35,876 bases of DNA. It comes from Puniceicoccales bacterium. GTDB taxonomy: Bacteria > Verrucomicrobiota > Verrucomicrobiia > Opitutales > JAIRLM01. The notes below the pieces were generated by a model. It did not search any database. It was not told the origin of the DNA and saw only the letters and a program-made list of their open reading frames with translations. The stretch covers positions 1 to 35,876 of the forward strand of contig JAITDL010000044.1 of the NCBI GenBank assembly GCA_031282565.1, given 5' to 3'. The translations under genes and the position numbers were made by a program. Numbering within the stretch: position 1 is the stretch's first letter; each line of letters begins with the position of its first letter. Shown in pieces: positions 5,840 to 35,799 of the stretch.

Positions 5840-5921
5840 GCTCAGGTGGTGGAATCGGTAGACACACACGTTTGAGGGGCGTGTGCCGCAAGGCGTATGG
5901 GTTCGAGTCCCATCTTGAGCA
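5840..5921 (+). tRNA. tRNA-Leu (anticodon GAG), class II with a long variable arm
   Basis: Hand-folded cloverleaf. Acceptor GCTCAGG/CTTGAGC (one G-U pair). D arm GTG-GAATCGGTAGA-CAC. Anticodon arm CACGT-TTGAGGG-GCGTG (T33, GAG at 34-36, G37). 13-nt variable arm TGCC-GCAA-GGCGT. T arm ATGGG-TTCGAGT-CCCAT. Discriminator A. CCA is not fully encoded (ACCG). Confidence 0.93.
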
Positions 5922-5977
5922 CCGATAAGTTGTTGGCTTTGAGTAAGTTGTGCGCCGTTCATCGGCCTGCGCCGCTC

Positions 5978-7865: not shown

Positions 7866-7990
7866 GGTGTTCTCTAAGCAAAATATTTCCGGCGAGTCAA
7901 GATTTTTTTTGCGCGATTTGATTGAGTTTGGGTCGAGTGCGATGAATAAATCTCGCACCGCCGTGGAAAATTATCCACCATGCTGCGGCC

Positions 7991-9859: not shown

Positions 9860-9873
9860 TTGCTCCATAAAAA

Positions 9874-15491: not shown

Positions 15492-15818
15492 TTTTTTTTG
15501 TAATGTCAAGGGTGTCCGAATGGCGATTGCGTGTATTTGAACTAATTGCCGGCCGCCATTTCGCTTAAAAAGCAAATTGCGCGCGAATTCGCAGTGCGGC
15601 GCAAATGGCTGAGTCAAAAAAACTCACAGGAAAATTTGCCGCAGACATTGACGAACAGCTAAAATGCCAATGCGCGCCACAAAAAACCTTAACTAGCGGC
15701 TGTAAAATTTTTGCGCGTCGCCATTTTCAGCGGAGGCTTCCGCAAATCGAGCGATTTTGCATTTTTTTACCTTTACTTCGCTGGCACATTGGGCAACCTA
15801 TTGATCGTGGTATCTGCT
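15492..15818. promoter_or_regulatory. Shared divergent control region between giant paralogues A and B
   Basis: About 330 bp without convincing coding sequence between the likely starts. It contains four GCAAAT/ATTTGC boxes (15573-78, 15602-07, 15635-40 inverted, 15742-47), a 10-bp palindrome GCGAATTCGC (15584-93) and TTGACA at 15503-15508 on the minus strand. Promoters are assumed rather than demonstrated. Confidence 0.4.
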
Positions 15819-18782
15819 ATGACAGGTATGGATAGTGGCAACGTAAAGCAGGCCGATGATTGGGCTGTTGACTCGAATATTGCTGTTTTTTTGGCACTTG
15901 TTACCACTCAGCTCTCCATTGGCTCCCCCAGTAAAATCGAAGACGATGAAAAAAGCCTTAGTGGTGCGATCATAGCTAGTGCGCACGCCACATTGGGTGG
16001 CTATTCGCTTTGCACTTTGAGCGGCCTAACACCAAGCGACGCTAAATTTAATAGCTGCTTCGTTGGCAATCCATATGCGTTCATGTTTGCACTGGCGAAT
16101 GGCTGCGACATTAATGCAGAAGGTGGCGCTACGGAGAATATTAGTTTGGCGTGCAAACTAGACGACAATTCCGTATTTACGCTTATTTGCAAAAGTCTGC
16201 CAACCATAGCGGAAGCTGCATGCCTCGCAAGAGATGATGGCAATACCGATCTTGCGAAGGAAATTGATGAGGCTAGCACTAGGATGTTTGCGAAGGTTGA
16301 CTTTGAAACTGCAAAACGCTGGGCTAGCATTATCAGGAAAAGGGGATCCGCCAATTCGGCGAACTACGAAAAGCACATTGCGACATTTCTCGCGAAGCTG
16401 TTTTGTGGAGTATTCATATACGGCAGCCAAGAAACAATTAAATCATACGACGGAAGTGGGGCTGATTTTTTTGCGCCCATTTCCGGTCCGATTTTTGATT
16501 TCGGCTTCGAAGAGAGAATAAAGTCCAGCCAGGAGGAGGAAATACGCGGTGACTCGTGGGTCATTGCTGCGGTCGGTGACCGTGCTATTCCAGGAAGACA
16601 CGTCGATGATTTTGCAAAGTCGATGCGGGCGAGCCCTGAACTTACAGAATTTTTACTTGAAGTAGCCGACGGAAAAAACGCAGATCAAGTGGCAAGGGCC
16701 GTGCGTGAAGTTCCATCGCAGCTGACAGGTGCGGGCGCCAGATATGAATCATTTGGCGAAAACTCCAAACTGCTAGTCAATCTGTCACTTACTGCGGAGA
16801 ACGCCCAACAAGTGTTTTCCACAGCAAATGGCACGCAAATTGGCGGGATTAACTATTTGGAGCTAACTAAAACTGTAGACGATGGATATAATGCTGGATG
16901 CCAATGTCCTTTTATAGATACATTGCCTGCTCGGCAGGCCATAGCTGCGGCAGGTCCGGCCATAGTTGCTGGGCTCGAAACTGGGCCCGAAAAGTTCACA
17001 GGGTCATTGGTGGCGATGGCAATTCTGCGGTTTGGTGGTGTGGAAGCAGTTAACGCGCTAACTAGGGAGCAAATCGACGGTGCGATAGAAGGTGTTACTG
17101 CCGCAGAAAATCAGCGAAGGATACGTCTAGGAAGCCAGCATCAAGAAGTGGTTAGTGGAGTAACTTGCGGCGTGTCGTTTGCAAATTTCTATGGAGCCAG
17201 ATTGCAACCGGCTGCCGCTGGACCTGTGACTGCCGAAGAGGAAAAAAAGTTAATCAACGATACGGCACATGCCATTGGCTCTGCGGTATGTGATCGGGGA
17301 AGTGCAGCGTCCGAAGTGCATGGCAATGGGTTTTCCAATCACCCGAGAGAAGTTAAATTTTCGCCAAACTATAGAAGGATTGTGCAGGGATTGAGCGGAA
17401 ATTCCTGTGCTTTAGCTTTTCTTGCCGAGGAAGCTCCGCGCGAAGTGTTGCAGTTTGTTCGTCTGAGCCAGGCCACTGATGGCTGCAAAGGCGAGATGTT
17501 TAAAAATTTTGCCAAGGTAATTGGCCCCGACGAAGTTAGAGGGCTTTTCACTGAAAATGAGGAGACATTGGATCCGCAGCTGGCTAGATCCGACTATCGC
17601 CCAGACCATGCTGCGCGCGATCTTTTCTTTGGATACCTGCTCATGTGCGGTTCAGATAGCCAGCGCAGAGCTCTCAGTGAGCGGCAGTTGGTTCTTGGGT
17701 TGAATGCCATAATGAAGTACAACGAAACTAGTGTTTTGCCTCTCGCCGGCTTCCCGACTGCCGCCGTGTGCCGCGAATTGTTCAGCAGGTTAAGTGATGA
17801 TGTTTTGGTAAAATTGGAACCGCAGCTCGATGCCGAACGTAGCCAACTGGATCAGCAAATGCGCATTGCCATTCAGCATCACATATTCTTCAGCGCCAGG
17901 GGGAAGCTTTCAGATAATCTCAGCGGCGAGCAGCTATTCGAGGTCATGCATGCAATCGCAATAAGCGGTGCCGCGGCCGCTGTGCGCGATGGCTCGACGA
18001 ACCTAACTGACACGAGATTGGATGACAGCGGAGATACTTTTCGCCGCGACAGGACAATTGTTGAATTTGTTGCCACACTCAGCAAGGCGCAGGCCAAGAA
18101 GTTGGTTCTAGTAATCAATAATGCTGCAGCGGATGGAAATGGCGGCAGAGAGAAAATCAAAGAGATTTTGTTTGGCTTCGCAGATCAGCCGGCGAACGCA
18201 TTTTGCGTCCTTGCTCCGCGGCAAACATTTCCCGTAAATATCCAGCTACTTGGCATTTCCCGCGGCGTGCCAGACTCCATTTCCGCATTCCCGACGCTGG
18301 CTGCGCTGATTGAAAAATCCGGCAAATCGATGTCAAATGATGTCGTTGAATTGCTGATTGCGAATAGTTTGCCGGCAGATGATATAAGTAAGGATTTGGT
18401 GGCAACGGCTGTGAACATAGTTAACCACGTGGCACTGTTGACGGTTTTCTCCGTGGAGGAATTGCTGCCGCAGATTTCGGATTCAAGTAAATCGTCATTT
18501 TGGCGCATCACCGAACTTGCCAATGATCCCAATAGAAGCCTCATTGGCGTTCGCATCATAGTGCTTCTGCAGCTGATCTTTTTCGGATTTCTTTTTCAGG
18601 AAATTCGCGCGCAATTTTTCATCGCCTGGCGCGTGTTCTACGCAAGCAACGTGGTAGCAAATGAAATTCTAACTGCCGTACTGTTCGCCACCGCCATAAG
18701 CTCCCATGGATTCCATGCCGTATACGAGAAGTCCGGCATAGGCGGCGCCGTTGGTAAAGATGCGTTTGTGCCAATTGAGTAG
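15819..18782 (+). CDS. Giant orphan protein B (paralogue of A). Helical-repeat-like, with a C-terminal hydrophobic anchor.
   Basis: The maximal ORF starts at TTG 15711 (1023 codons). The first ATGs are at 15819 and 15828 (MTGMDSGNV). No enzymatic motif is visible. C-terminal module ...RIIVLLQLIFFGFLFQEIRAQFFIAWRVFYASNVVANEILTAVLFATAISS... Confidence 0.8.
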   Translation: MTGMDSGNVKQADDWAVDSNIAVFLALVTTQLSIGSPSKIEDDEKSLSGAIIASAHATLGGYSLCTLSGLTPSDAKFNSCFVGNPYAFMFALANGCDINAEGGATENISLACKLDDNSVFTLICKSLPTIAEAACLARDDGNTDLAKEIDEASTRMFAKVDFETAKRWASIIRKRGSANSANYEKHIATFLAKLFCGVFIYGSQETIKSYDGSGADFFAPISGPIFDFGFEERIKSSQEEEIRGDSWVIAAVGDRAIPGRHVDDFAKSMRASPELTEFLLEVADGKNADQVARAVREVPSQLTGAGARYESFGENSKLLVNLSLTAENAQQVFSTANGTQIGGINYLELTKTVDDGYNAGCQCPFIDTLPARQAIAAAGPAIVAGLETGPEKFTGSLVAMAILRFGGVEAVNALTREQIDGAIEGVTAAENQRRIRLGSQHQEVVSGVTCGVSFANFYGARLQPAAAGPVTAEEEKKLINDTAHAIGSAVCDRGSAASEVHGNGFSNHPREVKFSPNYRRIVQGLSGNSCALAFLAEEAPREVLQFVRLSQATDGCKGEMFKNFAKVIGPDEVRGLFTENEETLDPQLARSDYRPDHAARDLFFGYLLMCGSDSQRRALSERQLVLGLNAIMKYNETSVLPLAGFPTAAVCRELFSRLSDDVLVKLEPQLDAERSQLDQQMRIAIQHHIFFSARGKLSDNLSGEQLFEVMHAIAISGAAAAVRDGSTNLTDTRLDDSGDTFRRDRTIVEFVATLSKAQAKKLVLVINNAAADGNGGREKIKEILFGFADQPANAFCVLAPRQTFPVNIQLLGISRGVPDSISAFPTLAALIEKSGKSMSNDVVELLIANSLPADDISKDLVATAVNIVNHVALLTVFSVEELLPQISDSSKSSFWRITELANDPNRSLIGVRIIVLLQLIFFGFLFQEIRAQFFIAWRVFYASNVVANEILTAVLFATAISSHGFHAVYEKSGIGGAVGKDAFVPIE

Positions 18783-20595: not shown

Positions 20596-21809
20596 CTTCC
20601 ATGTTTAACGATAACTGGGTGGTAGGTATTGAGCCAACCACGGCTCCAGGCGAATTTGACACGCTATTGGAGAAAAAAGGCCACTATTCATGGGGCAGAC
20701 CTGGTGTGCCGATTGTTTTTAGAAAAGGCTTCCACATGAAAGGTGGCGATGGAAGTATCGCAATGGAGTTCGCCTCACGGTTTGTGGATGCGAAGGTTGG
20801 AGAAAGTGTTCATCTTGAAATGGGCGCTAAAAATAGGAAATTGACTGTTGTAGTCAATAAACAGACGAAAAGCTTCGTTGCCAATGTCGATAGGCTTGTC
20901 AGAGGAGATAAGCCAGACCGGCGCGAAATCGTCATATGGTGGGCCCTGGCAATTATCACCTGTGGAATTTATGTCGCGCTAGTAAATAAAAGCACGCTCG
21001 CCAAATCCTATAATGTGCTGCAGTCGAGAATTGAAAAATTTCCTGGAATGGCGCGCGAAATGCAGGTAGTTGCCTGCTTGCTCGATATGGTTGCCGAGAG
21101 CGCCACCCCCATCTGTCGCAGCCAAGACTTGCCGGCAATGTTTGCGGACATACTAAATACGTACTACGCGCGGGTCCGCAATGAAGGAGATTTTACGCAC
21201 ATAGAGGAAGCCAGGGCATCGGTCGCGATTGTTGCAAATGTCCTTGGGGGATATGGCTGTGCAGATGCCTTTTTACAGCGCGTTGTGCTGGATATTCAAC
21301 CGCGCAAAGACGAAACTAGTGGAAAATATTTGCCCGTTGAACGAGTAGTTCCTGCTCCCGTTGTGCCAGCGGAACTTCCTCCGGTGCCCGAATGTGCCGC
21401 TACGTCGGAGTTGCCGGATGTGCGAGAGCTGGAGGATATGCCGGAGAGGCCTGGTATATTTATGCCAAATGGTCGGCGGTTGCGGAGGGACGTTCCGGGC
21501 AATGCGAGGTTTATTTTGCCGCAAAGACAGGGTGAGGGTGGTGCCGTTTCCGCCTGGCGGCGTGAAGAAAATGCAAGGAGGCGCGCAGCCGATGCCCCAA
21601 CGCCACCTGCATCGGAAGAGCAACATGACGCCGACGCGCCGTCACCGGAAGATGATGCGTTGATTAATTTGGCGAATGAAGATCCAATGAAACGTATCCA
21701 GGAAGAGATGTTGGGGGTTGTCGCGAAAGCTCAATTCGATGGGCCTAAACCGGCGACGGATGGTGATCCGTCCGTATTTAGGACGCCTCCCACTAAAAAA
21801 GGCACGTGA
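20553..21809 (+). CDS. Orphan protein (418 aa) with one TM segment and a Pro-rich, charged C-terminal half
   Basis: ATG at 20553. TM segment IVIWWALAIITCGIYVALV. C-terminal ...VVPAPVVPAELPPVPECAATSELPDVRELEDMPERPG...APTPPASEEQHDADAPSPEDD... No recognisable family. Confidence 0.6.
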   Translation: MANPPHSVGSSDEPPSMFNDNWVVGIEPTTAPGEFDTLLEKKGHYSWGRPGVPIVFRKGFHMKGGDGSIAMEFASRFVDAKVGESVHLEMGAKNRKLTVVVNKQTKSFVANVDRLVRGDKPDRREIVIWWALAIITCGIYVALVNKSTLAKSYNVLQSRIEKFPGMAREMQVVACLLDMVAESATPICRSQDLPAMFADILNTYYARVRNEGDFTHIEEARASVAIVANVLGGYGCADAFLQRVVLDIQPRKDETSGKYLPVERVVPAPVVPAELPPVPECAATSELPDVRELEDMPERPGIFMPNGRRLRRDVPGNARFILPQRQGEGGAVSAWRREENARRRAADAPTPPASEEQHDADAPSPEDDALINLANEDPMKRIQEEMLGVVAKAQFDGPKPATDGDPSVFRTPPTKKGT

Positions 21810-24693
21810 GCGACACCTCCAGTGACCCGCTGGTGTACTCTTTCCTGGAGAACTTTCCGGTGCCGTACATGGCGAGTTCACACTGGCGACCTATGCCAGT
21901 TTTTGCGCCGACTGTTGCCACGGCTTTCCCCTTGCGGCAGTGGTCGTTGACTTTTGCGATGAATGGATTTTCCAAGTTGTCAGCCGATCCAACTGCAGTC
22001 GTATGGCGTTGCTTCTGTTTTGTTTCAAATCCTGCGCGGACGAATAGCCGCGATTTTAAGTCCGGATCAATGCTAGGCTGTCCAAATTCCAGGTTTATGC
22101 CTACGATGGCTACTCCGATGTCGTGGCTGACTTCCGATAGACTTGCCCTGCTCGGGCCGCTGCCGGTTTCTTCGTATTTTTTGTGGCGGACGTAGTTGTA
22201 GCGCGCTTCAGCCCAGGGGCCAAATTGCACGGAGCCGAAGCGTAGGACATTCTGCGATAAAAGAATGAAGCAGTGCCCGCCGAAATCGTTGAACCTTGCC
22301 AGGTATTCGTCGCCCTGGACGCTGATGCGGGCGGAAGAATTCTTGCCTCTGCTGCAGCCGCACAGTACGTTAAGTGTCGTGCGCTTTTTGTGTGCACTCA
22401 TGTGGTCGAAGTGTGATGCCACAGCTGCGAAACAGGAATCGTGCTGCGTTGTCTTTATGCCGAAGTTTATTGTTTCGCCGGCGCAATCGACTCTGTTTCT
22501 GCCGCAGCCAACTAGGATTCCATAGCGCATGGAGCTGTTCATTGAGTGTGACACATAGGCTTCTCCAAGTACAAGCCCGTGGAATTTGCCGTCCAGCCAG
22601 AAGTCGCTGTCGTCATCATAGGGCTCATAGCGCGTTGTGCCGGCGAAGGCTGAGACAAACATCCCGCTGGCGTATGAGTTTGCCACGTGCTGCGTGCCGG
22701 AGTGGAGGCCAACTTCGAGCAATTCAAGTTTGGCCCGCGTAAGGTCGCCGTGGGGGAACACTTCCGCGTAGCGCTGGTACCTAGCAGGCGAGGCTCCAAC
22801 GATTTGGCCGTGCAGCGCATCATATGCGTTTTGGAGTTTCGCCACATTTTCGTAGAATTCTGCAAGCTTAGCAAAATTCGAGCTGTGTATGTCTGTGGTG
22901 CTTTCTAACGTGGAAAGTTTTTCTGTGAGTCCTGTTACTATTTCGCTGAGTGCAGAAAGGTCCTCCAGCGTGGCCAACACCCTATCGCCTCCATCCTCAA
23001 TGGTACCATTTTTGAGCTGTTCTTTCAGGTTTTCAAGGTCGCCGCTATTGGTTGGGCTACTTTGCAGGTCGCTCTTTTTCGCAAAATTCTCTTCAGCATC
23101 ATTTTTGCTGAGATAGTCGCTAAGGCTGTTGTTTAGTGCCTCCGTAGTCGCGTAGGTGTTGAGCTCGCTTTTCGTTGCAAATGTATCAGTTAAGTCGTCC
23201 GTTGCAGCATAGTTTGTGAGGTCATTTTTCGTTGCATAGGCGCTGAGGTCTTCTTTTTTTACGTATGTGCCATCTAAGCCGTCCGTTACAGCATAGTTTG
23301 TGAGGTCGCTTTTCGTTGCATAGCTATTTAGATCTGCCACCGTTGCGAGATATTGCGTGCTGCCATTTTTGTAAATTTTCCCCTCTTCCAACTTGGCCCT
23401 AAGAATTTTCAACTTAGCATCTAATGCGGCGACGTCTGACTTTAGGGCCAAAGTCGGCTGCCCACAGTGGCAGTTGCAATCGCCTGCCGTGCAGCACACT
23501 TCCTCCGTTGCGGCACCAACCGTGCAATCGCATGCCTGAAATCCGTCACAGCCGTGGACGTGGCTGCATCCGATTAGTCTATTTAGCAGATCAATGGTCA
23601 CGAGAGCATTTTTGCTGTCGATTTTGCCATCCTTTAGGTCCGCCTTTAGTGCGTCGATGGCATTGCCAACGCTATCGGTCACCGATGCCGATGTGGCATA
23701 GGTTGCTTGCGCTTCCGTCTTGCTGAGGCAGCTATCTTCCAGGGCAGTAAGGTCATCCGTTTTTGCCAGAACCTGTGCTTCGCAATGGGGAAGCTTCCCC
23801 TGTTTCAGTGCATTTTTTAGGGATTTGAGGTCGCTGTTTGTGGCAAGGATCTTGTTTCCGCAGCCTGGAGTATTGGTCAATTTGCCGCTCTCAAGAGCTT
23901 CTTTTAGGTCTCTAATATCTTCCACCGTTGCCAATTTTTGCTGCTTCCAAAAATCAATTTTTCCTCTTTCGAGTGCATCCTTCAGTTTTTCAAGATCCGA
24001 GTGCAGTGCAAGTATTTGCGCCGCTCCATGTTCGGGACTGAGCTTGCCATGGTTTAGCTGCCCAATAAGATTGTTTAATCTTTCCGTTGTCACTAGTTCC
24101 GGACCGGTCCTGTTGCCATTTACTTCGCCATTTTGCAAATTTTTGGCGAGATTCCCAATCGCATCGTCGACGTATTTCTGGACCGACGAAAGATCAATTT
24201 CGCCGCCGCCGCCATGCTCCTGGATGTAACCGATTAAATCGCTTTTCACGCTTTTAATTTGCTCTCCAAGAGCTGCCAGCTCACCATCTGTCGCGAGATA
24301 TTTAGTGTCATTGATGGCGCCGGTTTGCAAAAGTTCATCGGCTGAATCCATGGCGGCATGTATGCCGACTTCGCACCGCTGGATGTACTTCGGCATCCAG
24401 TTTAGGTATGCGTATAGCGCATCAAGATTGGCAAAATTTTCGAGGCCGTGAGCTAAATATGTGATCTCTTCCCTTGACAGCGGACCCGAATAATCTCCTG
24501 GGGCGAGGTAGCGCTCATCGACGTCATTGTATTTCTTGTAGCCTTCCCTAAACGTGTCGAAATCTACTTCATATGCCGGCGGCACCTGTGCCGTGTCATC
24601 TGCGAATGCCGGAGAAGATCCGGAAAATATCGGCGCCAAGGCTAGTGCGGCGGCTAGGAGGATTCGACGCCTGGTGGTGCAACAGGTTCCCAT
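21793..24693 (-). CDS. Type Va autotransporter-like outer-membrane protein with a repeat-rich, coiled-coil-like passenger
   Basis: Signal peptide MGTCCTTRRRILLAAALALAPIFSGSSPAFA-DD. The C-terminal ~290 aa show an alternating beta-strand pattern and end in ...SLEVSLTCLF (terminal Phe), as in autotransporter beta-barrels. The passenger carries LATxxDLxxLKxALxxGK modules, a 9-Cys cluster and YATKxDLTNY repeats. Confidence 0.78.
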   Translation of the reverse strand: MGTCCTTRRRILLAAALALAPIFSGSSPAFADDTAQVPPAYEVDFDTFREGYKKYNDVDERYLAPGDYSGPLSREEITYLAHGLENFANLDALYAYLNWMPKYIQRCEVGIHAAMDSADELLQTGAINDTKYLATDGELAALGEQIKSVKSDLIGYIQEHGGGGEIDLSSVQKYVDDAIGNLAKNLQNGEVNGNRTGPELVTTERLNNLIGQLNHGKLSPEHGAAQILALHSDLEKLKDALERGKIDFWKQQKLATVEDIRDLKEALESGKLTNTPGCGNKILATNSDLKSLKNALKQGKLPHCEAQVLAKTDDLTALEDSCLSKTEAQATYATSASVTDSVGNAIDALKADLKDGKIDSKNALVTIDLLNRLIGCSHVHGCDGFQACDCTVGAATEEVCCTAGDCNCHCGQPTLALKSDVAALDAKLKILRAKLEEGKIYKNGSTQYLATVADLNSYATKSDLTNYAVTDGLDGTYVKKEDLSAYATKNDLTNYAATDDLTDTFATKSELNTYATTEALNNSLSDYLSKNDAEENFAKKSDLQSSPTNSGDLENLKEQLKNGTIEDGGDRVLATLEDLSALSEIVTGLTEKLSTLESTTDIHSSNFAKLAEFYENVAKLQNAYDALHGQIVGASPARYQRYAEVFPHGDLTRAKLELLEVGLHSGTQHVANSYASGMFVSAFAGTTRYEPYDDDSDFWLDGKFHGLVLGEAYVSHSMNSSMRYGILVGCGRNRVDCAGETINFGIKTTQHDSCFAAVASHFDHMSAHKKRTTLNVLCGCSRGKNSSARISVQGDEYLARFNDFGGHCFILLSQNVLRFGSVQFGPWAEARYNYVRHKKYEETGSGPSRASLSEVSHDIGVAIVGINLEFGQPSIDPDLKSRLFVRAGFETKQKQRHTTAVGSADNLENPFIAKVNDHCRKGKAVATVGAKTGIGRQCELAMYGTGKFSRKEYTSGSLEVSLTCLF
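23059..23355 (-). repeat. In-frame tandem repeats inside the autotransporter passenger (YATKxDLTNY-type)
   Basis: Protein sequence YLATVADLNSYATKSDLTNYAVTDGLDGTYVKKEDLSAYATKNDLTNYAATDDLTDTFATKSELNTYATTEAL... At the DNA level, two 49-nt copies lie 84 nt apart (23191-23239 and 23275-23323) and differ at 4 positions, with a degenerate third copy near 23163-23183. Confidence 0.75.
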
Positions 24694-24894
24694 GGGCCAA
24701 GTTTTGCTGTGAATCTGCTGTAGAGCAAGATATTTTTTACAAATGGTGAAGGATTTGCAAAGTTTGCCGCAAAAAGCGAAAGAAAAGGACTTGACTCGGT
24801 GCCCTCAGCCTGAGGATATGGCCGCGACGAGCTTTGGCGGCGATGTTGGTCAAATGATTTTGCCGTCGCCGGTTGATGTCCAGAGGAAAGTAGG

Positions 24895-25329
24895 ATGAGC
24901 ACGAGCACATTGGCCAAGAAGGAGCAGCACGGCGCTGCCACGAAGAAGTGGTATCTCTTCGACGCGTCCGAGGAGATTTTGGGTCGCATGGCGGTGCGCG
25001 TGGCCAACATCCTGCGCGGGCGCCACAGGCCCACCTACACGCCCCACGTCGACAGCGGCGATTTTGTAGTCGTGGTCAATGCCGACAGGGTGCGCCTCAG
25101 CGGAAAGAAAGATAGCCGAAAGAAATATATGTTCTATACCGGCTACATGGGCAACGAAAAGTATCGCACGCCGGCGCAGATGCGCGTCCGTGACCCGCGT
25201 TTTGTCGTCGAGCACGCCGTTAGGGGGATGATGCCGAAAAATCGTCTGGCAGACGCCGCCATCAAGAAACTTAAGGTCTACGGTGGACCGGATCACCCAC
25301 ACGCGGCGCAGAACCCGGAAAAACTTTAG
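24895..25329 (+). CDS. rplM: 50S ribosomal protein L13
   Basis: 144 aa. WYLFDASEEILGRMAVRVANILRGRHRPTYTPHVDSGDFVVVVNADRVRLSGKK...YTGYMG...AVRGMMPKN is canonical L13. GGAAAG/AGG purine-rich stretch upstream of the ATG. Confidence 0.97.
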   Translation: MSTSTLAKKEQHGAATKKWYLFDASEEILGRMAVRVANILRGRHRPTYTPHVDSGDFVVVVNADRVRLSGKKDSRKKYMFYTGYMGNEKYRTPAQMRVRDPRFVVEHAVRGMMPKNRLADAAIKKLKVYGGPDHPHAAQNPEKL

Positions 25330-25341
25330 GAGATTGCAACG

Positions 25342-25752
25342 ATGTCACCGTCAACCACAGCAAAACCGGAAGAATTCATAGCCACCGGTCGCCGCAAGAC
25401 CGCCGTTGCGCGTGTGCGCATTGTCCGCGGGACTGGAAAGATAACGATCAATGGCAAGCCGGCCAGCGGCTACTGCCCGCAGGATGAATTTCTGCGCGTG
25501 GCATTTGCACCGGCAAAACTCGTCGAAATGGATGCCATGCTAGACATGCGCATACGGGTCGAGGGCGGTGGAATAGTTGGCCAGGCTGGTGCCATCGCCC
25601 ACGGCGTCGCCCGTGCCCTGGCTGCCATGCAGCCTGAATTGCGGCCGGACTTGAAGAAGAACAAAATGCTCACCCGCGATCCACGCATGAGGGAGCGGAA
25701 AAAATCTGGACAGCCGGGCGCCCGCAAGCGCTTCCAGTTCTCAAAGCGCTAG
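25342..25752 (+). CDS. rpsI: 30S ribosomal protein S9
   Basis: 136 aa. ATGRRKTAVARVRI..GTGKITINGK...GGGIVGQAGAIAHGVARAL...LTRDPRMRERKKSGQPGARKRFQFSKR is canonical S9. It starts 12 nt after rplM. Confidence 0.97.
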   Translation: MSPSTTAKPEEFIATGRRKTAVARVRIVRGTGKITINGKPASGYCPQDEFLRVAFAPAKLVEMDAMLDMRIRVEGGGIVGQAGAIAHGVARALAAMQPELRPDLKKNKMLTRDPRMRERKKSGQPGARKRFQFSKR

Positions 25753-25808
25753 ACCGTTCCAGATCTGCCTTGACTGCGGCCGGCGCACCGTCACAGTTGT
25801 GCCATTCC

Positions 25809-26102
25809 ATGGCGCTCACAGAGGAAAAACGGTTGGCCGTCACGCGCGAGCTGCTTCGCACGGTCCAGGGTTCGTCGCCGAGCATATCGCAGATTGAGGG
25901 CATTTTGTATAATTTTGACCTCCAGGTCGACGACGTCGAGAGTCGCATCTTTATCCTATCCCGCCTCGCGGAGCTTGTGCGGGAATTGTCGGTTAAACTG
26001 TTCCGCTCCACAGATCAGCGCTTTGACGTCATCGACATCGTCCAGGAAGTTCTCGACCACTACATCGAGGTTGAGGACATCATAACTGACGAAGTTTCCT
26101 AG
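25809..26102 (+). CDS. Small acidic orphan protein (97 aa from ATG 25809)
   Basis: The ORF opens at TTG 25770, and ATG 25809 (MALTEEKR...) is more likely. By my count there are about 20 Asp/Glu against 10 Lys/Arg. It is predicted helical and has no known motif. It lies directly downstream of rpsI and upstream of the repeat-flanked cassette. Confidence 0.45.
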   Translation: MALTEEKRLAVTRELLRTVQGSSPSISQIEGILYNFDLQVDDVESRIFILSRLAELVRELSVKLFRSTDQRFDVIDIVQEVLDHYIEVEDIITDEVS

Positions 26103-26123
26103 AGCTATGACCCATTGCCACGG

Positions 26124-26210
26124 CAGCAGATCGGCTTTTTGCTGAAGAGGCGCCGCGAAATGACATTTTGTCAGCGGCTCAGCACTGCACCGCGGCGCCT
26201 GGCCCCGCCG
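26124..26210 (+). repeat. 87-bp direct repeat, copy 1
   Basis: cagcagatcGgctttttgctgaagaggcgccgcgaaatgacattttgtcagcggctcagcactgcaccgcggcgcctggccccgccg. It is identical to 27016-27102 except for one base (G/T at repeat position 10). It contains a perfect 10-bp inverted repeat AGGCGCCGCG (26148-57) / CGCGGCGCCT (26191-200) around a 33-nt loop, which itself holds TGAC-ATTTT-GTCA. Confidence 0.95.
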
Positions 26211-26393
26211 CAACAACAAAAATTTTAGAATTTTTTTTAGACCCTCCACCAATTTTTTTGCGAACCGAGTGCCGCATGTTGGCCTATTTTTTCACTGTCT
26301 GAGTGACTGAGCTGGAGGGAAATAGGCAAAAATGCAAAAAAATTACAAATTTTTATTGCGCCTATTTTTTTACATTTCATCCCATGCGCTGCT

Positions 26394-26978
26394 ATGCTAT
26401 TTGACCCAGGAAGCCCTTCTGATGCCATATGGCTGGCTACGCGTGCTGGAAGTGGTAGCGACTCATTCGATGAGCGCGTTGTTTCGGTAGTCACGAAAAT
26501 TGGGGAGCTGAAAATTGTCTGTGGAAGAATTGTTGCACATGGGGGTGTGACCGCGGTCGGCGTCCCAGTCCCAGTCAGAAGGGATGTGCAAGCTTACGTT
26601 GCAGATCTTTTCCATCCAGGTGCCGGCCAACTGATTCTACAGACCACTGAAGGTGAAACAATTTTCTTTTCGGCATTTTGCAGCATTGGCGATCCTCTCA
26701 AACTTGCCACAGATAAGAAAAGAATTAGTCGATTCCATAAGGCATGCGTAAATGGGTTCTTCTATCTCATCCCTAGCCGTAGCGCAACGCGAAAAAGGAA
26801 AAGTGCATATGACAAATTTGTGGAACGCAAGCGCCTGGATGGATCGGCAACCATGAAGAGAGCGGGAGATGGGTCTGGCATGGAGGCCGTTGACGAGGAA
26901 GGAGCGCCTATTAAACGCGTGCGGACTGTATCAGCGAAAGCTCGTGAGATTATTGCTTCTTATTGGAGAGGCAACTAG
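26394..26978 (+). CDS. Orphan protein (194 aa) with C-terminal NLS-like basic clusters, bracketed by the 87-bp direct repeats
   Basis: ATG at 26394, preceded by a ~160-nt AT-rich stretch. The C-terminal third reads ...SATRKRKSAYDKFVERKRLDGSATMKRAGDGSGMEAVDEEGAPIKRVRTVSAKAREI... No recognisable family. Confidence 0.6.
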   Translation: MLFDPGSPSDAIWLATRAGSGSDSFDERVVSVVTKIGELKIVCGRIVAHGGVTAVGVPVPVRRDVQAYVADLFHPGAGQLILQTTEGETIFFSAFCSIGDPLKLATDKKRISRFHKACVNGFFYLIPSRSATRKRKSAYDKFVERKRLDGSATMKRAGDGSGMEAVDEEGAPIKRVRTVSAKAREIIASYWRGN

Positions 26979-27015
26979 CTAACGAAATGTACAACCTCCT
27001 TCGTGCCAGCGACTT

Positions 27016-27102
27016 CAGCAGATCTGCTTTTTGCTGAAGAGGCGCCGCGAAATGACATTTTGTCAGCGGCTCAGCACTGCACCGCGGCGCCTGGCCCCGC
27101 CG
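27016..27102 (+). repeat. 87-bp direct repeat, copy 2
   Basis: 86/87 identical to 26124-26210, offset 892 bp. In this copy the 5' end forms a perfect 12-bp palindrome AGCAGATCTGCT (27017-28) that runs into a T-tract. The 10-bp stem halves are at 27040-49 and 27083-92. Confidence 0.95.
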
Positions 27103-27186
27103 TAATTTTCGGCGGCGGCAGCAAAGAAGTGTTGCAAGGCGTCCAATGGCCCCTAGAGCATGGCGGACTGTGGCCAGGGACGGACG

Positions 27187-29988
27187 ATGGAGCTGAAAGA
27201 CACACTGAATCTTCCAAGAACTAATTTCCCACTTCGGGCGGATCTTGTTCGACGGGAGCCGCTTAGGCGTGCTCATTGGAAGAAGATTGATCTCTACGGC
27301 AAAATTGGGAGGGCGAGGAGCGGCTGCAAAAAGTTTTTTCTGCACGACGGACCGCCATTCACAAACGGCGATGTGCACATAGGCACAGCCTTCAATAAAA
27401 TCCTGAAGGACATCATCATCCGCCACAGGACACTGCTCGCCTACGACGCCCCCTACGTTCCAGGATGGGACTGCCACGGACTTCCCATCGAGCACAAAGT
27501 TTCCAAGTTAATGCACGGCAAGGGTGAAAGCTTTGACAGGCTGCAAATGCGCCGCGCCTGCGCAGAGTTCTCCAAAAACTACAGCGCCAAGCAGCGGGAA
27601 CAGTTCGAGCGGCTCGGCCTCCTCGGAGACTGGGACAGGCCCTACCGCACGATGGATCCGGCCTATGAGGCTGCAGTGTTGCAATTTTTCGCTTCCTGCG
27701 TGGACGGAGGCATCGTCTACCGCAGTAAAAAACCTGTCTATTGGTCGATTCCATGTGCTACGGCATTGGCGGAAGCCGAGATAGAATACAAAGATTGCGG
27801 CGCAACGGCCATCTGGGTGAAATTCCCTCTGGATGAGGAATCTAGGAAAAAACTGGCGATCTCCGGGCGCCCATCGGTGGTCATTTGGACCACAACGCCC
27901 TGGTCAATTCCTGCGAATTTGGCAATCGCAGTTAACGAAACCTTTAGCTACCAAGCACTTTCGTCGGGCGACGAAACCTTCATAGTCGCCGCGTCGCGGG
28001 CCGAGCAATTTGCTTCGGAATGCGGCTTGGAGCTTGGATCTGTCGGGACTTTTAGAGGATCAGAATTGGTTGGCCTATGTTGCCGCCATCCGTTCATAGA
28101 CCGACCCAGTCCAGTTCTCGGAGCGGACTTTGTAACATCCGATGCTGGAAGTGGTTGCGTTCACTGCGCTCCCGGACATGGCATGGAGGACTATCAACTT
28201 GGATTGCGTCACGGATTGGAGATTTACTGCCCCGTTGACGACGGCGGCTGCTACGTGGACGACGGCAGAATGCCGAGGGAATTAGTTGGACTGCAGTTGC
28301 TTGACGGAGATGGTCACTGCCCCGCCGGCGACGGCGTCATGGCGCTGCTTCGAAGTGGAGGGAATTTGCTCGGCGCGAAGCACATCGTCCATTCCTACCC
28401 GCACTGCTGGCGCTCGAAGACGCCGCTCTTCTACCGCGCCATGGACCAGTGGTTTTTCCGCCTCGAAGATGAGCTGCTGCGGGAGAAGGCGCTCCGCGAA
28501 GTCGATCGGGTACAATGGATTCCCGAATGGGGCAAAAATCGCATGCGGGGATTTTTGGAAAACCGGCCGGACTGGTGCATAAGTAGGCAGCGCTGCTGGG
28601 GGATTCCGCTGCCGGTGTTTTTCGACGGTGCGGGCCGCGCGCTCCTCAACGGAGATGTGATTCGCGCCGTGGCTGAAAAAGTCCGTAAATACGGTTCCGA
28701 CTGCTGGTTCGAGCATGATGCCAGGTGGCTCCTCGACGGTGTCCAACTTGCAAGTTCTTGGAGCGTCGACGATTTGCGTCCTGGCACTGACACCATTGAC
28801 GTCTGGATCGATTCGGGATGCAGTTCCTACGCAGTTCCGGCGAGCGCCGGTGCCGTGGAATTTCCCGCGGACTTATACGTTGAGGGGAGCGACCAGCACC
28901 GCGGATGGTTTCAGTCATCTCTTTGGTGTGGAATCGTTGGCCCAGCAGGCCGTGCGCCCTACCGCGCCGTCTTGACCCACGGATTCATCGTCGGCGAAGA
29001 CAGGAAAAAAATATCAAAGAGCTCCGACAAGCCACAATCGGCCGACGACTACGTGCTCCGCTACGGTGCTGATGTTGTGCGCCTGTGGGTTGCGTCGGAA
29101 GACTTTCGCGGAGACATAGCCATTTCCGACGGCATCATGGAGCACGTCTGCGGCGCCTACGGAACAATTCGCAATGCGCTCCGGTTTCTGTTGGGCAACC
29201 TCCACGACTTCAACGCGAAACGTGATGCGATTCCATTCGGTGAACTGCTTCCACTCGATTGCTGGGCACTTGCTAAGCTGGGCGAGCTAATTGCTGAGGT
29301 CTCATGTTCCTACGAAGCTTGCGAATTCCACAGGGCGCAGCGTGCATTGCTAAGTTTTTGCACTTCAACACTATCAGCCCAATACCACGACATTCTCAAG
29401 GACCGCCTCTACACATTTTCAGGGACGAGCCACGGGCGACGGTCAGCGCAAACGGCTCTGGAAGAAATTCTAATGGCGCTGCTTGCCATGTTGACGCCGA
29501 TTCTAACGTTCACAGCCGATGAAGCATACGCCCATAGACAGACGGGAGAAGATTTTGCGGAAAATCCGGCCCATCTAATCCAGTGGCCGGACGCTGGCCG
29601 CTTCGACTGCTGCAAAGAAATTGCAAATGAGGTGGATGAGCTGTTTGCGTTGCGGGCGCTGGTCTATAGGAAGCTCGAAGACGCTCGCCGGGATAAAATA
29701 ATTGGAAAATCACTGGAAGCTTCTGTCACTGTGACCGTTGGCGTTGATAGTCCATGGCGCGGTTCCGCTGCAAAGCACTGCGACCAGCTGGCTGAACTTT
29801 TCATCGTATCTTCCGTGGAGATTGTTGAATGCAAGGGCGATGGCGTTGACGTGGCCGTTGTCCGTTCCGCCGGAGAGCGCTGCGATCGCTGCTGGCGCCA
29901 TGTAAATGATTTGCTAAGTGAAAATTCTTGGCACGTTTGCCGCCGGTGTCAGAAAGTGTTACTTGAATTTGCGCGCCATGTCGGCTAG
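27187..29988 (+). CDS. ileS: Isoleucine--tRNA ligase (type 1, C-terminal zinc finger)
   Basis: MELKDTLNLPRTNFPLRADL... is the typical IleS N-terminus, so ATG 27187 is preferred over the ORF start at 27160. HIGH-type motif PPFTNGDVHIGTA, KMSKS-type KKISKSS, the CP1 editing domain, and C-terminal CDRCWRH...CRRC. Confidence 0.97.
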   Translation: MELKDTLNLPRTNFPLRADLVRREPLRRAHWKKIDLYGKIGRARSGCKKFFLHDGPPFTNGDVHIGTAFNKILKDIIIRHRTLLAYDAPYVPGWDCHGLPIEHKVSKLMHGKGESFDRLQMRRACAEFSKNYSAKQREQFERLGLLGDWDRPYRTMDPAYEAAVLQFFASCVDGGIVYRSKKPVYWSIPCATALAEAEIEYKDCGATAIWVKFPLDEESRKKLAISGRPSVVIWTTTPWSIPANLAIAVNETFSYQALSSGDETFIVAASRAEQFASECGLELGSVGTFRGSELVGLCCRHPFIDRPSPVLGADFVTSDAGSGCVHCAPGHGMEDYQLGLRHGLEIYCPVDDGGCYVDDGRMPRELVGLQLLDGDGHCPAGDGVMALLRSGGNLLGAKHIVHSYPHCWRSKTPLFYRAMDQWFFRLEDELLREKALREVDRVQWIPEWGKNRMRGFLENRPDWCISRQRCWGIPLPVFFDGAGRALLNGDVIRAVAEKVRKYGSDCWFEHDARWLLDGVQLASSWSVDDLRPGTDTIDVWIDSGCSSYAVPASAGAVEFPADLYVEGSDQHRGWFQSSLWCGIVGPAGRAPYRAVLTHGFIVGEDRKKISKSSDKPQSADDYVLRYGADVVRLWVASEDFRGDIAISDGIMEHVCGAYGTIRNALRFLLGNLHDFNAKRDAIPFGELLPLDCWALAKLGELIAEVSCSYEACEFHRAQRALLSFCTSTLSAQYHDILKDRLYTFSGTSHGRRSAQTALEEILMALLAMLTPILTFTADEAYAHRQTGEDFAENPAHLIQWPDAGRFDCCKEIANEVDELFALRALVYRKLEDARRDKIIGKSLEASVTVTVGVDSPWRGSAAKHCDQLAELFIVSSVEIVECKGDGVDVAVVRSAGERCDRCWRHVNDLLSENSWHVCRRCQKVLLEFARHVG

Positions 29989-31234: not shown

Positions 31235-33055
31235 TCAGCTCGACAGCTCGATGATATCAGGCGTGGTAATGTCCGGCCTGGCAACTGCTATGACGCAATT
31301 TCCCGGAAGAGGAAATATCACCTTACCGTATTTCAATGTCAGATATTCCGACAAAGCTGACATCGGGACTGCATCGAATTTATTGCCATTGCAACTACCG
31401 ACGACGGTGAGTTGAGCGCGCTCATCACTTCCAGACGCAATGGCGCACACAAATGCGAAGCGTTCAGACGGAGGCAGTAACTCAAATGCTTTGTCGAAAC
31501 GGAGAAAGGAAAAACATTCATCCTCGGATAACATGAGCTGGAGTCGAGAGATTTCGATGGCAGATTGTCGGACGGCAGAGGTTTGCGTGCGAATTAGTGT
31601 AACAGTGCCATTTGGATATGGTGAATCCACTATGACTCCGCAGCAGCTGTGGCCGTAGGCGGGCGTTTGCATTTCGTCGTTTGCCTCCATGGATATGCCC
31701 AGCATTACAAGTTCGCCACCTGCCAAATTGAACCTTCTACCGCAACGAAACAAGGCCGCGCATAGAAGCTGCGGAGTAGCATTTGCTAGAAATTCCGCAT
31801 CACATTGCGGAATTTCCGGTGAACCTGAAAATGCCATATCCCTTTTTCCAGTAAATTCATCGGCCATGGCACGGCCCATCATAAATTGTATAACAACCGG
31901 CGTTGTCATGAAAATGTAAACATTTGGCCGGGAAGAAGTTTCGCCGAATGATATAATGGCGGTTATGGTGCCAAAACGGCGAAGAAGTTCCAATTGCGGT
32001 TTGTGTTCAACGATGCATTCTTCGAATAGTATGCCGCCGTAGATGTTGTCCACGACAATCCTTCTTGCATTTGGAGTAAAAAGCATGACGCGGCGCATGA
32101 GATGCGCCCTTTGGACGGTTAGTTCGTTGCAGCCTGTGTGGTGGCAATCCGCGATAATTCTTTGCATTGGCACAAGACGGTCCACAACCTTTTGGTCTGC
32201 GCCTGCCATAAGCATTGAAATGGCGTCGATGGCAATTGCAATGAACACCCTTTTGTCGATTAAGAATAGGGATTTTTTTAGAAAAACTTTCCTCAGTGCA
32301 GCCAGCGGCGAGTGAATGCTCGCGAATTCGGCTGGAATTTCGATGGAATCTGCCATTGGGCCATTGTCTAGCGAGGCATAGTGCACGACCAATTGCTTCC
32401 CATCGCCGTCGCTTGCGAATTCAAGCACCAAATTCCAACGGTCCATGAGCTGCTCGAGAAGTCCATCGCCGCTGCGTGTCGCCATGCAGTGGAAAACACA
32501 TTCCATTGAATATTCATGGTCTAGATCACAAAGTCGATGATAGCCAATGGTTGACGTGTATCTTTCTCCGGAGAGTTTCCTTGCAAGTTCTCCGAGTCCG
32601 ATTTTTTCAAATGCCGGTAAAAGTTGGACGCGCAGTGTGATTTCACCGGCGTGGCGTAGGATCGTTGTCCTGAGTATGGCAATGGGAGGAGGTCCCAGCC
32701 GCATGTCCCCAATTGGGAAATTGAATGAGGCTGGCATGCGCTGTGGGTCTCCGCCTGGAAATTGCAGAACGAGTTCTCCGCGACCAATTAAAACGACAAT
32801 CATGTTTGCGTAGAGTTGCATGTTGTTGTGGCGCAAAAATATCAACCAAGACAGGACGCTGCAGTCATCGGCCGTATCCTGGATGATTTCGTAGGACAGC
32901 GCCGTGATCGCTGCGCTTCGGAACATTTCTGGCGTCCGAATGGCGCAGATATCAAAAATGCGACTAACTGTTGCTGTCCGTTGGTCTTCCGCTAATGGGG
33001 GATAGAGTTTAATTGCCCTGTCGACTATCGCTACGTATGCTAACGGTTTATCCAT
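31235..33055 (-). CDS. Orphan protein (606 aa)
   Basis: Long ORF with an ATG at 33055 and ordinary globular composition. I cannot place any signal peptide, TM segment or catalytic motif. Its stop codon (31235-37) directly abuts the lspA stop (31232-34). Confidence 0.7.
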   Translation of the reverse strand: MDKPLAYVAIVDRAIKLYPPLAEDQRTATVSRIFDICAIRTPEMFRSAAITALSYEIIQDTADDCSVLSWLIFLRHNNMQLYANMIVVLIGRGELVLQFPGGDPQRMPASFNFPIGDMRLGPPPIAILRTTILRHAGEITLRVQLLPAFEKIGLGELARKLSGERYTSTIGYHRLCDLDHEYSMECVFHCMATRSGDGLLEQLMDRWNLVLEFASDGDGKQLVVHYASLDNGPMADSIEIPAEFASIHSPLAALRKVFLKKSLFLIDKRVFIAIAIDAISMLMAGADQKVVDRLVPMQRIIADCHHTGCNELTVQRAHLMRRVMLFTPNARRIVVDNIYGGILFEECIVEHKPQLELLRRFGTITAIISFGETSSRPNVYIFMTTPVVIQFMMGRAMADEFTGKRDMAFSGSPEIPQCDAEFLANATPQLLCAALFRCGRRFNLAGGELVMLGISMEANDEMQTPAYGHSCCGVIVDSPYPNGTVTLIRTQTSAVRQSAIEISRLQLMLSEDECFSFLRFDKAFELLPPSERFAFVCAIASGSDERAQLTVVGSCNGNKFDAVPMSALSEYLTLKYGKVIFPLPGNCVIAVARPDITTPDIIELSS

Positions 33056-33783: not shown

Positions 33784-35799
33784 TTAATTGTGCTCTTGCC
33801 GAGTAATCATGTAGAGATAGTTAAATCCGCCGCCGTCTTTCCCAAATGATCCGCATTGAAAGCCGCCTCGCGTCGAAAAAAACGTGCACGGGATGGGTTT
33901 CCCATCAAAACCACAGCAAAATCCAGCGGAAACTGGTTGATATAATTTCTCGTCAGATGATCCGCCGCCGGCATCCGTAGCTCTGTCAAAATTGCGCCAT
34001 CTGTCTATGTAAATTGGCACGATGTCGAGCGCAATAAGCTGCTCAATGATAAAATCTCCCACGGTGCCACGGGTCATGCTGCGTGGAGCTAATGTGTCTG
34101 CGCTTGAAAGTTCTTTCCCCCTAGCACAACATGAAATCTTCGCGGTTCTGGTCCACGTATCAATTTTGCCGCCATCCCGTAATAGATCTTCAATCGACAT
34201 GGCTTCATTCATGTACTCGAGCAGTTTTCCACGGAGTTGTGTTCCATCGTGGTCACCGAAGTGATAGGCGGCTTTCGTCGCAAATTGATCAACGGAGAGG
34301 TTATCTCCAAGAATCTCCGCCAATGACTTTTGCTTAAGTGCCAGCATGTGCGCGCCCATTGCATCGCAGATATCTTGCAGCGGAGATTGGGCGCCAATTC
34401 GTCTGCAGCCATCAGCCGACACTAGTGGAGGTCCTGAAGTTGATTTTTCCATCCATAAATAGTGCTTATCTATTCCTCCAAGGAAACCGATTACACTGGG
34501 ATTCCCTGCTTCATCCATCACTATCGCATCAATTGTTTTTTCTTCATTGAAGTCTTGGGTATGACTTGATTTTTTGTCTGGGAGCTGGTAAACTCTTGTA
34601 ATGGCATATCCATCTCCAAGGTATGCCGGAATGATCTCCGTGTAAATTTCAAACGAAATCCCGAAGGCATCTGCTTCCTGGTCAAAATTTTCTATTCCTC
34701 CAACGGCAAGCGGCACAAAATCTTTCTCCAATGGGTTCGCGCGGCGGTATGCTGCCGCTGCTGCGGGAGCGGCGGCACGTACTGGTTCCATGGCAGTCCG
34801 TTCCCATGCGCCTTGTAAATGGCATGGATGTCCTTTCCGCGGAGCCATTGCCGCAATTTTTACTATCTTGCCATCTATTACAATGTATATGCAGCCCTCT
34901 TCAACAAGACTCTTCAGCTCCGCGAACATGCGCCGCGGGTATTTGAGCTGTATTAGGGCAATGATGCTAATGATGCCGCAATTGCCGTCGGCGTACTGCA
35001 TAACGGGCAAAAGCGCGGCGGTAAGTACTTTCACTCGAAATTCTTGGAGAACATCTTCGATGGATTGTGGGTTCGCCAGCAGTGCCAGTAGGACGCTGCG
35101 CGTTACGCGGCAGCAATCTTCTGGAACAAGCAGCGCGAGAAAGCATTCGGCCTTTGCGCGCTGGAATTTTCCATCGCCGCCGATGCAGGCCGCTGCAATT
35201 TTTCCGGCGAGTTCAAGTGAAACGCCGCACACAGCGTCCGGCGCAAATTCTATGGGTCCATCAACTGATGTATTACTGGCTATAACTGACAATTTAACGA
35301 AATCAATGCATTCCTGGCGACTTAGCACCATGTTATCTGGCAGGTTGCTTGCTAATTCACCGAAATTCAATGTGGCTAGGACACTATCTGGATCCAGCCA
35401 CGAGGAACGACCCAGCTTCCGCCCAATTTGAAGGTTGAACCCAGCATTGCTAAGACGCATATTTTGCCGTATTCGTGCGAGGTTCAATTCGGCGAAATTG
35501 CGCAGTGCGTCGTAGTGTTCACGGGGTAAAACTGTTTGGACGCTCAATTCAACGTGCGCCGGCACGTCTGCCGCGTCATCTTCCGGCGGAACTTCTGGCG
35601 TCGCTGCAGGTACAGGCGTGGAAGCAATTGGCGGCGTTGTACTAGCAGCCTGCTTGCCAACATTCGCCGCGGGACCTTGGCTTTCCGGCTCGTCATCAGC
35701 CGCCACTGCTGGTTTGCCGACAACTTCTGCCGTTGCCGGGTCCACTTTTGCCGCTGTGGCATTTGTTTGTTTGCGTTGAATTGCAGGCACATGGACCAA
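33784..35799 (-). CDS. Orphan protein (671 aa) with an OTU-like cysteine-protease signature. Candidate deubiquitinase-type effector.
   Basis: ATG at 35799. The first ~85 aa are Ala/Pro/Thr-rich and look disordered. ...VMQYADGNCGIISIIAL... gives Asp271/Cys274, and ...FLGGIDKHYLWME... gives His446-Tyr447, 172 aa downstream. This matches the OTU arrangement of DGNC plus H followed by an aromatic residue. The C-terminus is Cys/Gly-rich. Confidence 0.7.
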   Translation of the reverse strand: MVHVPAIQRKQTNATAAKVDPATAEVVGKPAVAADDEPESQGPAANVGKQAASTTPPIASTPVPAATPEVPPEDDAADVPAHVELSVQTVLPREHYDALRNFAELNLARIRQNMRLSNAGFNLQIGRKLGRSSWLDPDSVLATLNFGELASNLPDNMVLSRQECIDFVKLSVIASNTSVDGPIEFAPDAVCGVSLELAGKIAAACIGGDGKFQRAKAECFLALLVPEDCCRVTRSVLLALLANPQSIEDVLQEFRVKVLTAALLPVMQYADGNCGIISIIALIQLKYPRRMFAELKSLVEEGCIYIVIDGKIVKIAAMAPRKGHPCHLQGAWERTAMEPVRAAAPAAAAAYRRANPLEKDFVPLAVGGIENFDQEADAFGISFEIYTEIIPAYLGDGYAITRVYQLPDKKSSHTQDFNEEKTIDAIVMDEAGNPSVIGFLGGIDKHYLWMEKSTSGPPLVSADGCRRIGAQSPLQDICDAMGAHMLALKQKSLAEILGDNLSVDQFATKAAYHFGDHDGTQLRGKLLEYMNEAMSIEDLLRDGGKIDTWTRTAKISCCARGKELSSADTLAPRSMTRGTVGDFIIEQLIALDIVPIYIDRWRNFDRATDAGGGSSDEKLYQPVSAGFCCGFDGKPIPCTFFSTRGGFQCGSFGKDGGGFNYLYMITRQEHN

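Follow-up and report, generated by a model that had tools for sequence, protein, structure and literature searches.

Near-identical structured repeats flank an orphan gene between tyeA and ileS in an uncultured Puniceicoccales bacterium

We analysed contig JAITDL010000044.1 of the Puniceicoccales bacterium assembly GCA_031282565.1, which is one entire contig, present at NCBI and JGI, of a metagenome-assembled genome (MAG) and measures 35,876 bp (hereafter, the window), with attention to two near-identical repeats of a unit of about 90 nt, here called element E, that enclose a single orphan gene upstream of ileS [Table 1]. The genes are arranged in the order autotransporter (minus strand), rplM, rpsI, tyeA, copy 1 of element E, an AT-rich leader, an open reading frame (ORF) of 194 aa (ORF194), copy 2, ileS, a dksA-like gene, and lspA. 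The cores of the two copies are identical at 86 of 87 positions and lie in direct orientation with a spacing of 892 bp, and the 795 bp of DNA between the repeats hold the AT-rich leader and ORF194, a strict orphan, and no other gene. These features had been described in the original prediction and were all reproduced from the sequence; its placement of the cassette between the rpsI region and ileS held on the ileS side, whereas the direct upstream neighbour of copy 1 is a tyeA-family gene and not rpsI. The sole mismatch within the core is G26133 in copy 1 versus T27025 in copy 2, after which a perfect block of 77 nt (26134-26210 in copy 1) is followed by C26211 versus T27103. A repeat search extended the pair to 97 nt at 95% identity and returned it as the only long two-copy repeat in the window; outside these limits the identity falls to background on both sides. 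A match of this quality within 36 kb cannot have originated by chance. Copy 1 starts 14-21 nt past the stop codon of tyeA, and copy 2 starts 30-37 nt past that of ORF194. As had also been noted earlier, no transposase, integrase, or tRNA is adjacent: the only tRNA of the window lies at 5840-5923, and Pfam detected neither an integrase nor a transposase domain among the scanned window ORFs (a non-overlapping greedy set of at least 100 aa, plus tyeA, which left out a 410-aa ORF at 2577-3809).

Table 1. Positions of element E, its hairpins, and the adjacent genes in the window
Feature	Position	Strand	Evidence
Repeat copy 1 (element E)	26117..26213, core 26124-26210	+	Repeat search; model R1, 121.9 bits; L083 orthologue at the same offset
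Repeat copy 2 (element E)	27009..27105, core 27016-27102	+	Repeat search; model R1, 123 bits
Core hairpin of copy 1	26148..26200	+	Fold and inverted-repeat scan; model R2, 82.8 bits; 9 invariant pairs and 1 compensatory pair
Core hairpin of copy 2	27040..27092	+	Fold and inverted-repeat scan; model R2, 82.8 bits
Extra hairpin CCGCCG-TAATTTT-CGGCGG, copy 2 only	27094..27119	+	Fold of 27009-27125, z = -5.4
tyeA-family gene (type III secretion gatekeeper), 97 aa	25809..26102	+	Pfam PF09059, E 8.5e-10
AT-rich leader of ORF194, T/A tracts	26214..26393	+	180 nt; GC and inverted-repeat analysis
Orphan ORF, 194 aa (ORF194)	26394..26978	+	No homologue; positive codon score; GC content at third codon positions (GC3) 0.44
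ileS (isoleucyl-tRNA synthetase)	27187..29988	+	First gene of the conserved ileS-dksA-lspA block

Element E is composed of a head (CAGCAGA...CTTTTT), a hairpin with a GC stem and a variable interior, and a GGCCC tail. The 10-bp stem AGGCGCCGCG/CGCGGCGCCT around a 33-nt interior was found in both copies, the small inner hairpin TGACA-TTT-TGTCA forms part of the minimum free energy fold, and AGCAGATCTGCT at the 5' end is a perfect palindrome in copy 2 only, all of which agrees with the earlier reading of the fold. The extra hairpin of copy 2 has its 5' arm within the repeat and its 3' arm beyond it, with the 3' repeat boundary at the start of its loop. Compared with shuffled sequences, copy 2 together with this downstream hairpin reached the z-score given in Table 1, versus -1.55 for copy 1. 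When 60-nt folds were computed along the whole window (∼7,000 positions; mean -13.3 kcal/mol, standard deviation 4.5), the hairpin ranked 7th (-28.4 kcal/mol) and the tail of copy 2 ranked 2nd (-30.2 kcal/mol), and the element hairpins were the only intergenic entries among the 15 most stable folds. With Rfam 15, which includes T-box and other ileS leaders, only the tRNA passed the gathering score in the window, and nothing overlapped the repeat even at E<=10. Two further identities were tried and rejected. A CRISPR array needs at least three repeats of about 25-40 nt with spacers of similar size, whereas the locus has two repeats of 87-97 nt and a 795-nt spacer that codes for an ORF. Nor is the repeat unit coding, as on reading the sequence the small ORFs that cross it are in different frames in each copy and the substitutions relative to its counterpart in a related contig (L083) are without 3-nt periodicity.

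The comparison with relatives rests on two covariance models, R1, built from the two window copies alone, and R2, a model of the core hairpin whose training alignment includes the related contigs L082 and L083. The closest relative by TyeA (86% amino-acid identity) is L083, in which an orthologue of element E (R1, 47.2 bits, E 1e-10) has its unit ∼19 nt and its core hairpin 45 nt past the tyeA stop codon, an offset as in the window. Between the window and L083, identity is 83% for rplM, 83% for rpsI, 78% for tyeA, and 72% for the element, and since the rpsI-tyeA spacer and the post-tyeA spacer retain only 48% and 24%, the element is far better conserved than the non-coding DNA around it. The limits of this conserved block nearly coincide with those of the unit duplicated in the window, which argues against a random segmental duplication. 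In the outer stem, nine pairs are invariant and the closing pair has changed from A-U to G-C in a compensatory manner; two further compensatory pairs lie in the inner hairpin. A third member was found on the minus strand of L082 (8360-8415), a third MAG (TyeA, 74%), where it shares GAGGCGCCGCGAAA...CGCGGCGCCT and a recognisably related interior (R1, 19.4 bits, E 0.0017). This copy lies between convergent genes, 35 nt past the stop codon of a 475-aa orphan gene on its own strand, within 6 kb of orphan genes that separate rpsI from tyeA. The R2 scores of L083 (72.7 bits) and L082 (68.9 bits), compared with 82.8 bits for each window copy, are circular, and the independent support comes from R1, because both sequences stand in the R2 training alignment. 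All four copies in the three genomes share the stem (A/G)GGCGCCGCG ... CGCGGCGCC(U/C) around a 31-34-nt interior, and each lies in sense orientation 14-37 nt (the core hairpin 35-61 nt) after a stop codon. After tyeA, element E exists as a discrete conserved module in at least two lineages; it is probably a non-coding module maintained by selection in one uncultured Puniceicoccales clade.

Searches for further members of the family gave few. With filters off, R1 returned only the two adjacent copies in the 35.9-kb window, and R2 found no further members in the window, in L084, L085, L206, and L207, or in four other Puniceicoccales/Opitutales loci. One copy is present in the related MAG represented by L082 and L206 (about 36 kb), and no other family member was detected in about 60 kb of relatives beyond the identified members. 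An exact 22-mer of the element was absent from the genome contig collection and from the JGI metagenome contigs. A loosened stem pattern was also tried and discarded; it matched 120+ loci in GC-rich soil and other contigs, which at R1 scores of at most 22 bits are chance hits, and gave four hits in viral contigs. Element E has no detectable sequence relative outside the clade; in the sequence covered, it looks like a low-copy, clade-specific family and not like a classical high-copy repetitive extragenic palindrome (REP).

The enclosed ORF194 had only its self-match in 5.8 billion clustered proteins and in a phmmer scan of 1.84 billion representatives, and no Pfam, NCBIfam, or meaningful PHROG hit. 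Its leave-one-out codon score of 0.076 lies at the bottom of the range of the window genes (0.075-0.216), the five alternative frames are negative, and its GC3 is the lowest in the window; ORF194 is probably a real gene, but a young or foreign one. A single-sequence AlphaFold2 model was unusable (mean pLDDT 36). By eye, basic clusters resembling nuclear localisation signals (NLS), RKRK...RKR and KRVR, were seen near the C-terminus (residues ∼132-180, 26790-26960), and such clusters could fit a secreted effector. The plasmid collection, the rest of the window, and the related loci contained nothing that matched the cassette DNA or protein, and the phage collection nothing that matched the DNA. 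The leader is the most AT-rich intergenic stretch of the window (GC of 26200-26399, 0.395, versus 0.52 for the window) and carries nested inverted repeats (26274-26289/26320-26335 and 26330-26343/26364-26377), with GCCTATTTTTT occurring twice directly and once inverted. This arrangement may represent an operator or promoter architecture; a sigma-70-like match at 26369-26398 is weak and at chance level. Since ORF194 is a strict orphan with the lowest GC3 and its leader has a GC content of about 0.40, the cassette appears by its composition to be foreign or young.

Both sides of the cassette are breakpoints of synteny in the clade, because the genes downstream of tyeA and upstream of ileS vary among relatives. 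The ileS-dksA-lspA block was kept in 77/77 verrucomicrobial loci fetched, and upstream of ileS nothing was conserved; in the closest relatives, divergent orphan genes (L206) or gapA (L207) are found there. On the other side, rplM-rpsI-tyeA was kept in L083 and L084, and likewise in L082 with the 6-kb insertion of orphan genes, and the gene after tyeA differs in each relative (DeoC, peptidase M3, or a 429-aa gene). The neighbourhood of rpsI and tyeA resembles a hotspot at which orphan genes are gained.

The window copies are 99% identical to each other and only 72% identical to the L083 orthologue, and therefore they separated very recently or were homogenised by gene conversion, as the original prediction had supposed. 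It had offered several explanations for the repeats, among which a pre-existing structured element or gene-end module fits best, because the unit is conserved after tyeA in L083 and has a paralogue after another gene in L082; a high-copy REP finds no support in the sequence covered. Our tentative reading, preferred though held with reserve, is that element E is a gene-end module of the clade that was duplicated locally in coupling with the gain of the leader and the orphan ORF. A unit of an AT-rich leader and one orphan ORF would have been gained beside a resident element E, and this gain would have been coupled to the duplication of E, which would give tyeA and the new gene an identical module at their ends. 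Judged by its offset from tyeA, copy 1 is the likelier resident copy. The second copy could stem from a long staggered target duplication or from a circular unit of leader, ORF, and E recombining within the resident E, or the duplication could be an older one that was later homogenised by gene conversion. In the RNA, element E may form a 3'-end hairpin by which the transcript is terminated or stabilised. Because its stem sequence is invariant rather than co-varying, a protein probably recognises the element in a sequence-specific manner. The perfect direct repeat of 77 nt would allow the cassette to be deleted or amplified by homologous recombination.

Several observations weigh against a gene-end module duplicated along with gene gain. 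There is no U-tract after the large hairpin on either strand, and a terminator scan of the plus strand (25300-27600) found no terminator; a canonical intrinsic terminator, with a loop of 3-8 nt and then a U-tract, was accordingly rejected, as the interior measures 33 nt and the T-tract precedes the large hairpin. The large hairpin is absent after tyeA in L084 and L085 and is hence not essential to tyeA, and L082 does not retain the two inner hairpins. The covariation analysis proposed in the original prediction yielded the one compensatory pair in the outer stem and the two in the inner hairpin, from only three distinct element sequences, so the covariation support is thin. Compared by eye with the L083 spacer, the 5' flank of copy 2 agrees at 14/21 positions versus 8/21 for copy 1, a difference short of significance (p about 0.07), and the longer flanks of copy 2 gave p 0.46-0.59 against shuffled controls; the sequence before copy 2 had seemed to hold a remnant of the 3' end of tyeA, the mark of a longer and older duplication, but this was rejected with these values as no better than the controls. 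Tens of copies in unrelated contexts, by which the repeat was to be recognised as a generic REP element, were not encountered, and this copy number is a density estimate from about 36 kb of window and about 60 kb of relatives.

The two-copy structure might also be produced by an assembly problem, either a contig mis-joined via the shared repeat or an 892-bp tandem array or small circle collapsed to one copy, for which we see a small chance. Its attraction is that tyeA and ileS are adjacent in no relative examined (tyeA-DeoC, tyeA-peptidase M3, orphans-ileS, and gapA-ileS were seen), that the 77-nt identical core exceeds small assembly k-mers, and that the Logan source has TyeA of the same organism but lacks the exact ORF194 protein. 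A Logan contig from an independent assembler (L081, SRR14710905) is 100% identical to positions 24058-26163 of the window. Its end at 26163 lies exactly 30 nt beyond the G/T mismatch and is the end of the last 31-mer holding the base specific to copy 1. Because a graph of k=31 must branch there if both variants are present, the break is consistent with two entries into the repeat and falls exactly where the two-copy structure predicts, which speaks against an artefact. Moreover, the variants specific to each copy (26133/27025 and 26211/27103) are only 78 nt apart and can be phased by ordinary reads, and even with wrong joins the four flanks would still require two or more near-identical copies. 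In another reading, which we regard as very improbable, the element is a 5' regulatory leader, of ileS and after the duplication also of ORF194, or an independent small RNA gene. The fold of copy 2 with its downstream hairpin, far better than shuffles, and the position of copy 2 at 55-80 nt upstream of the two candidate ileS starts (27160 and 27187) would suit such a role. A conserved leader of ileS is nevertheless ruled out, because R1 finds no such element at 80 ileS loci from relatives; a blastn search of these loci with the unit gave short chance matches only, and no element lies upstream of ileS in the two closest relatives (74% and 69% identity of isoleucyl-tRNA synthetase, IleRS). The L083 orthologue follows tyeA, the L082 copy lies between convergent genes, and there is no Rfam match, all of which count against this reading.

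Mobility offers a further set of explanations. The segment 26117-27105, or the element alone, could be a non-autonomous mobile unit, similar to a miniature inverted-repeat transposable element (MITE) or REPIN or of the IS200/IS605 type, with the transposase in trans and the stem as its recognition site; we consider this unlikely. The stem sequence is kept across three lineages while the interior varies, as for a site recognised by a protein, two directly oriented hairpins lie at the ends of the cargo, and a related copy occupies a different position in L082; in addition, L081 and L083 both break off at the element or shortly beyond it (L083 10 nt after it), as contigs do at repeats. However, no transposase, integrase, or RAYT (Y1 transposase) domain was found among the Pfam-scanned ORFs, the copy density is very low, the element is already present after tyeA in a relative without an ORF194 homologue in the database, and the identity covers the full 87 nt and not the hairpins alone. 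Although inverted arms exist as in a MITE, neither the core hairpin nor the 90-nt unit is flanked by a target-site duplication at any of the three loci (window, L083, and L082). That the repeats are attL and attR of a decayed integrative element, an island that lost all but the leader and one ORF, is improbable as well. Direct repeats of tens of bases (here about 90 nt) around DNA of atypical composition resemble such sites, and both the region upstream of ileS and the rpsI-tyeA neighbourhood are variable and orphan-rich in relatives; but neither an integrase nor a remnant was detected, there is no tRNA target, only 795 bp remain between the repeats, and near-perfect repeats would not be expected to outlast such decay for long. 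A gene cassette like that of an integron, in which the element would serve as a folded recombination site of the attC type, has hardly any probability in our estimation, even though an orphan ORF followed by a palindromic site in the same orientation, with conserved arms and a variable centre, is what an integron would show. No intI-like gene was found among the scanned ORFs, the RYYYAAC and GTTRRRY core sites are missing with no GTT in the unit, there are two sites and no array, the cassette has its own long, AT-rich, promoter-like leader, and the 6-kb block of L082 holds five called orphan genes and a single element. More speculatively, and as a long shot, element E could be the recombination site of an unrecognised system of single-gene capture, in which promoter-bearing orphan genes would be inserted beside tyeA and each insertion would duplicate the structured site, analogous to attC cassettes or to the duplication of a CRISPR repeat at spacer integration. 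With tyeA nearby and an NLS-like tail on ORF194, the genes captured by such a system would possibly be effectors of type III secretion.

Among known systems, the nearest kinds by function and position are the REP/BIME-type elements and the larger intergenic palindromic repeats, and element E departs from them in copy number and architecture. ERIC/IRU, Correia, and BOX/RUP (of enterobacteria, neisseriae, and pneumococci, respectively) are structured intergenic units on the scale of 100 nt that are co-transcribed and can affect transcript ends; they are multi-copy, and Correia and RUP have terminal inverted repeats and target duplications. In contrast, element E is without a target-site duplication and has very few copies, of which the two near-identical ones are adjacent. 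REP, BIME, and REPIN are RAYT-associated intergenic palindromic elements of Proteobacteria (PMC3116915, PMC3337134). Element E resembles REP/BIME in being extragenic, GC-rich, and hairpin-forming, in its position just after gene ends, and in a stem kept within the lineage. The stabilisation of mRNA 3' ends is a role classically ascribed to REPs. Element E differs in its length of about 90 nt with a 10-bp stem and a 33-nt interior versus an imperfect palindrome of 20-40 nt, two of which in inverted orientation make up a REPIN, in its very low copy density versus hundreds of copies, in the lack of a conserved GTAG-type head at the three element loci, and in its verrucomicrobial host. The locus looks like a recent local duplication linked to gene gain and not like a new kind of mobile element.

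If the reading as a duplicated gene-end module is true, element E would represent a small non-coding module that is specific to its clade and under selection, in a verrucomicrobial lineage that is poorly known and probably host-associated, and the locus would illustrate cleanly how a new orphan gene can obtain an existing gene-end module via local duplication. The perfect 77-nt direct repeat further predicts on/off polymorphism or amplification of a possible effector gene. The locus would have no bearing on a long-standing open question unless element E proves to be a recombination site.

By its protein similarities, the host is an uncultured Puniceicoccales/Opitutales verrucomicrobium, as its IleRS is 74%, 69%, and 60% identical to proteins of Puniceicoccales-labelled MAGs and about 50% identical to those of other Opitutales. 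The TyeA-family protein scores 25.1 bits with TIGR02511, slightly below the cutoff of 25.9, and its homologues have 73-86% identity, one of them carrying the NCBI name TyeA. Components of type III secretion are unusual for Verrucomicrobiota and hint at a host-associated lifestyle; no other type III secretion gene was recognisable in the window, and nothing was found in the literature on Puniceicoccales with type III secretion. A lone TyeA-family gene stands directly after rplM-rpsI in several Puniceicoccales contigs (the window and L082-L085). In L082, about 6 kb between rpsI and tyeA (4147-9878) hold five called genes without Pfam hits. After tyeA in L085, by eye, GGGCAGCAGTCTGCC at 440-465 resembles the element head CAGCAGATCTGC without the large hairpin, and L084 (2085-2100) and L085 share TGGCAATT(A/G)CG ahead of the next gene.

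Elsewhere in the window, the 966-aa autotransporter on the minus strand (21793-24693; beta-domain PF03797) contains internal, tandem-like repeats of 84 nt (23147-23371) with 62-75% identity. Large ORFs of 530-1303 aa without a Pfam domain lie at 3405-5720, 5978-7570, 7991-9859, 11706-15617, 15711-18782, 31235-33055, and 33784-35799. The 771-aa one of these is RGG-rich at its N-terminus and overlaps, with its 5' part, the 3' end of the 410-aa ORF on the opposite strand, which follows a gene for a T2SSE-type ATPase.

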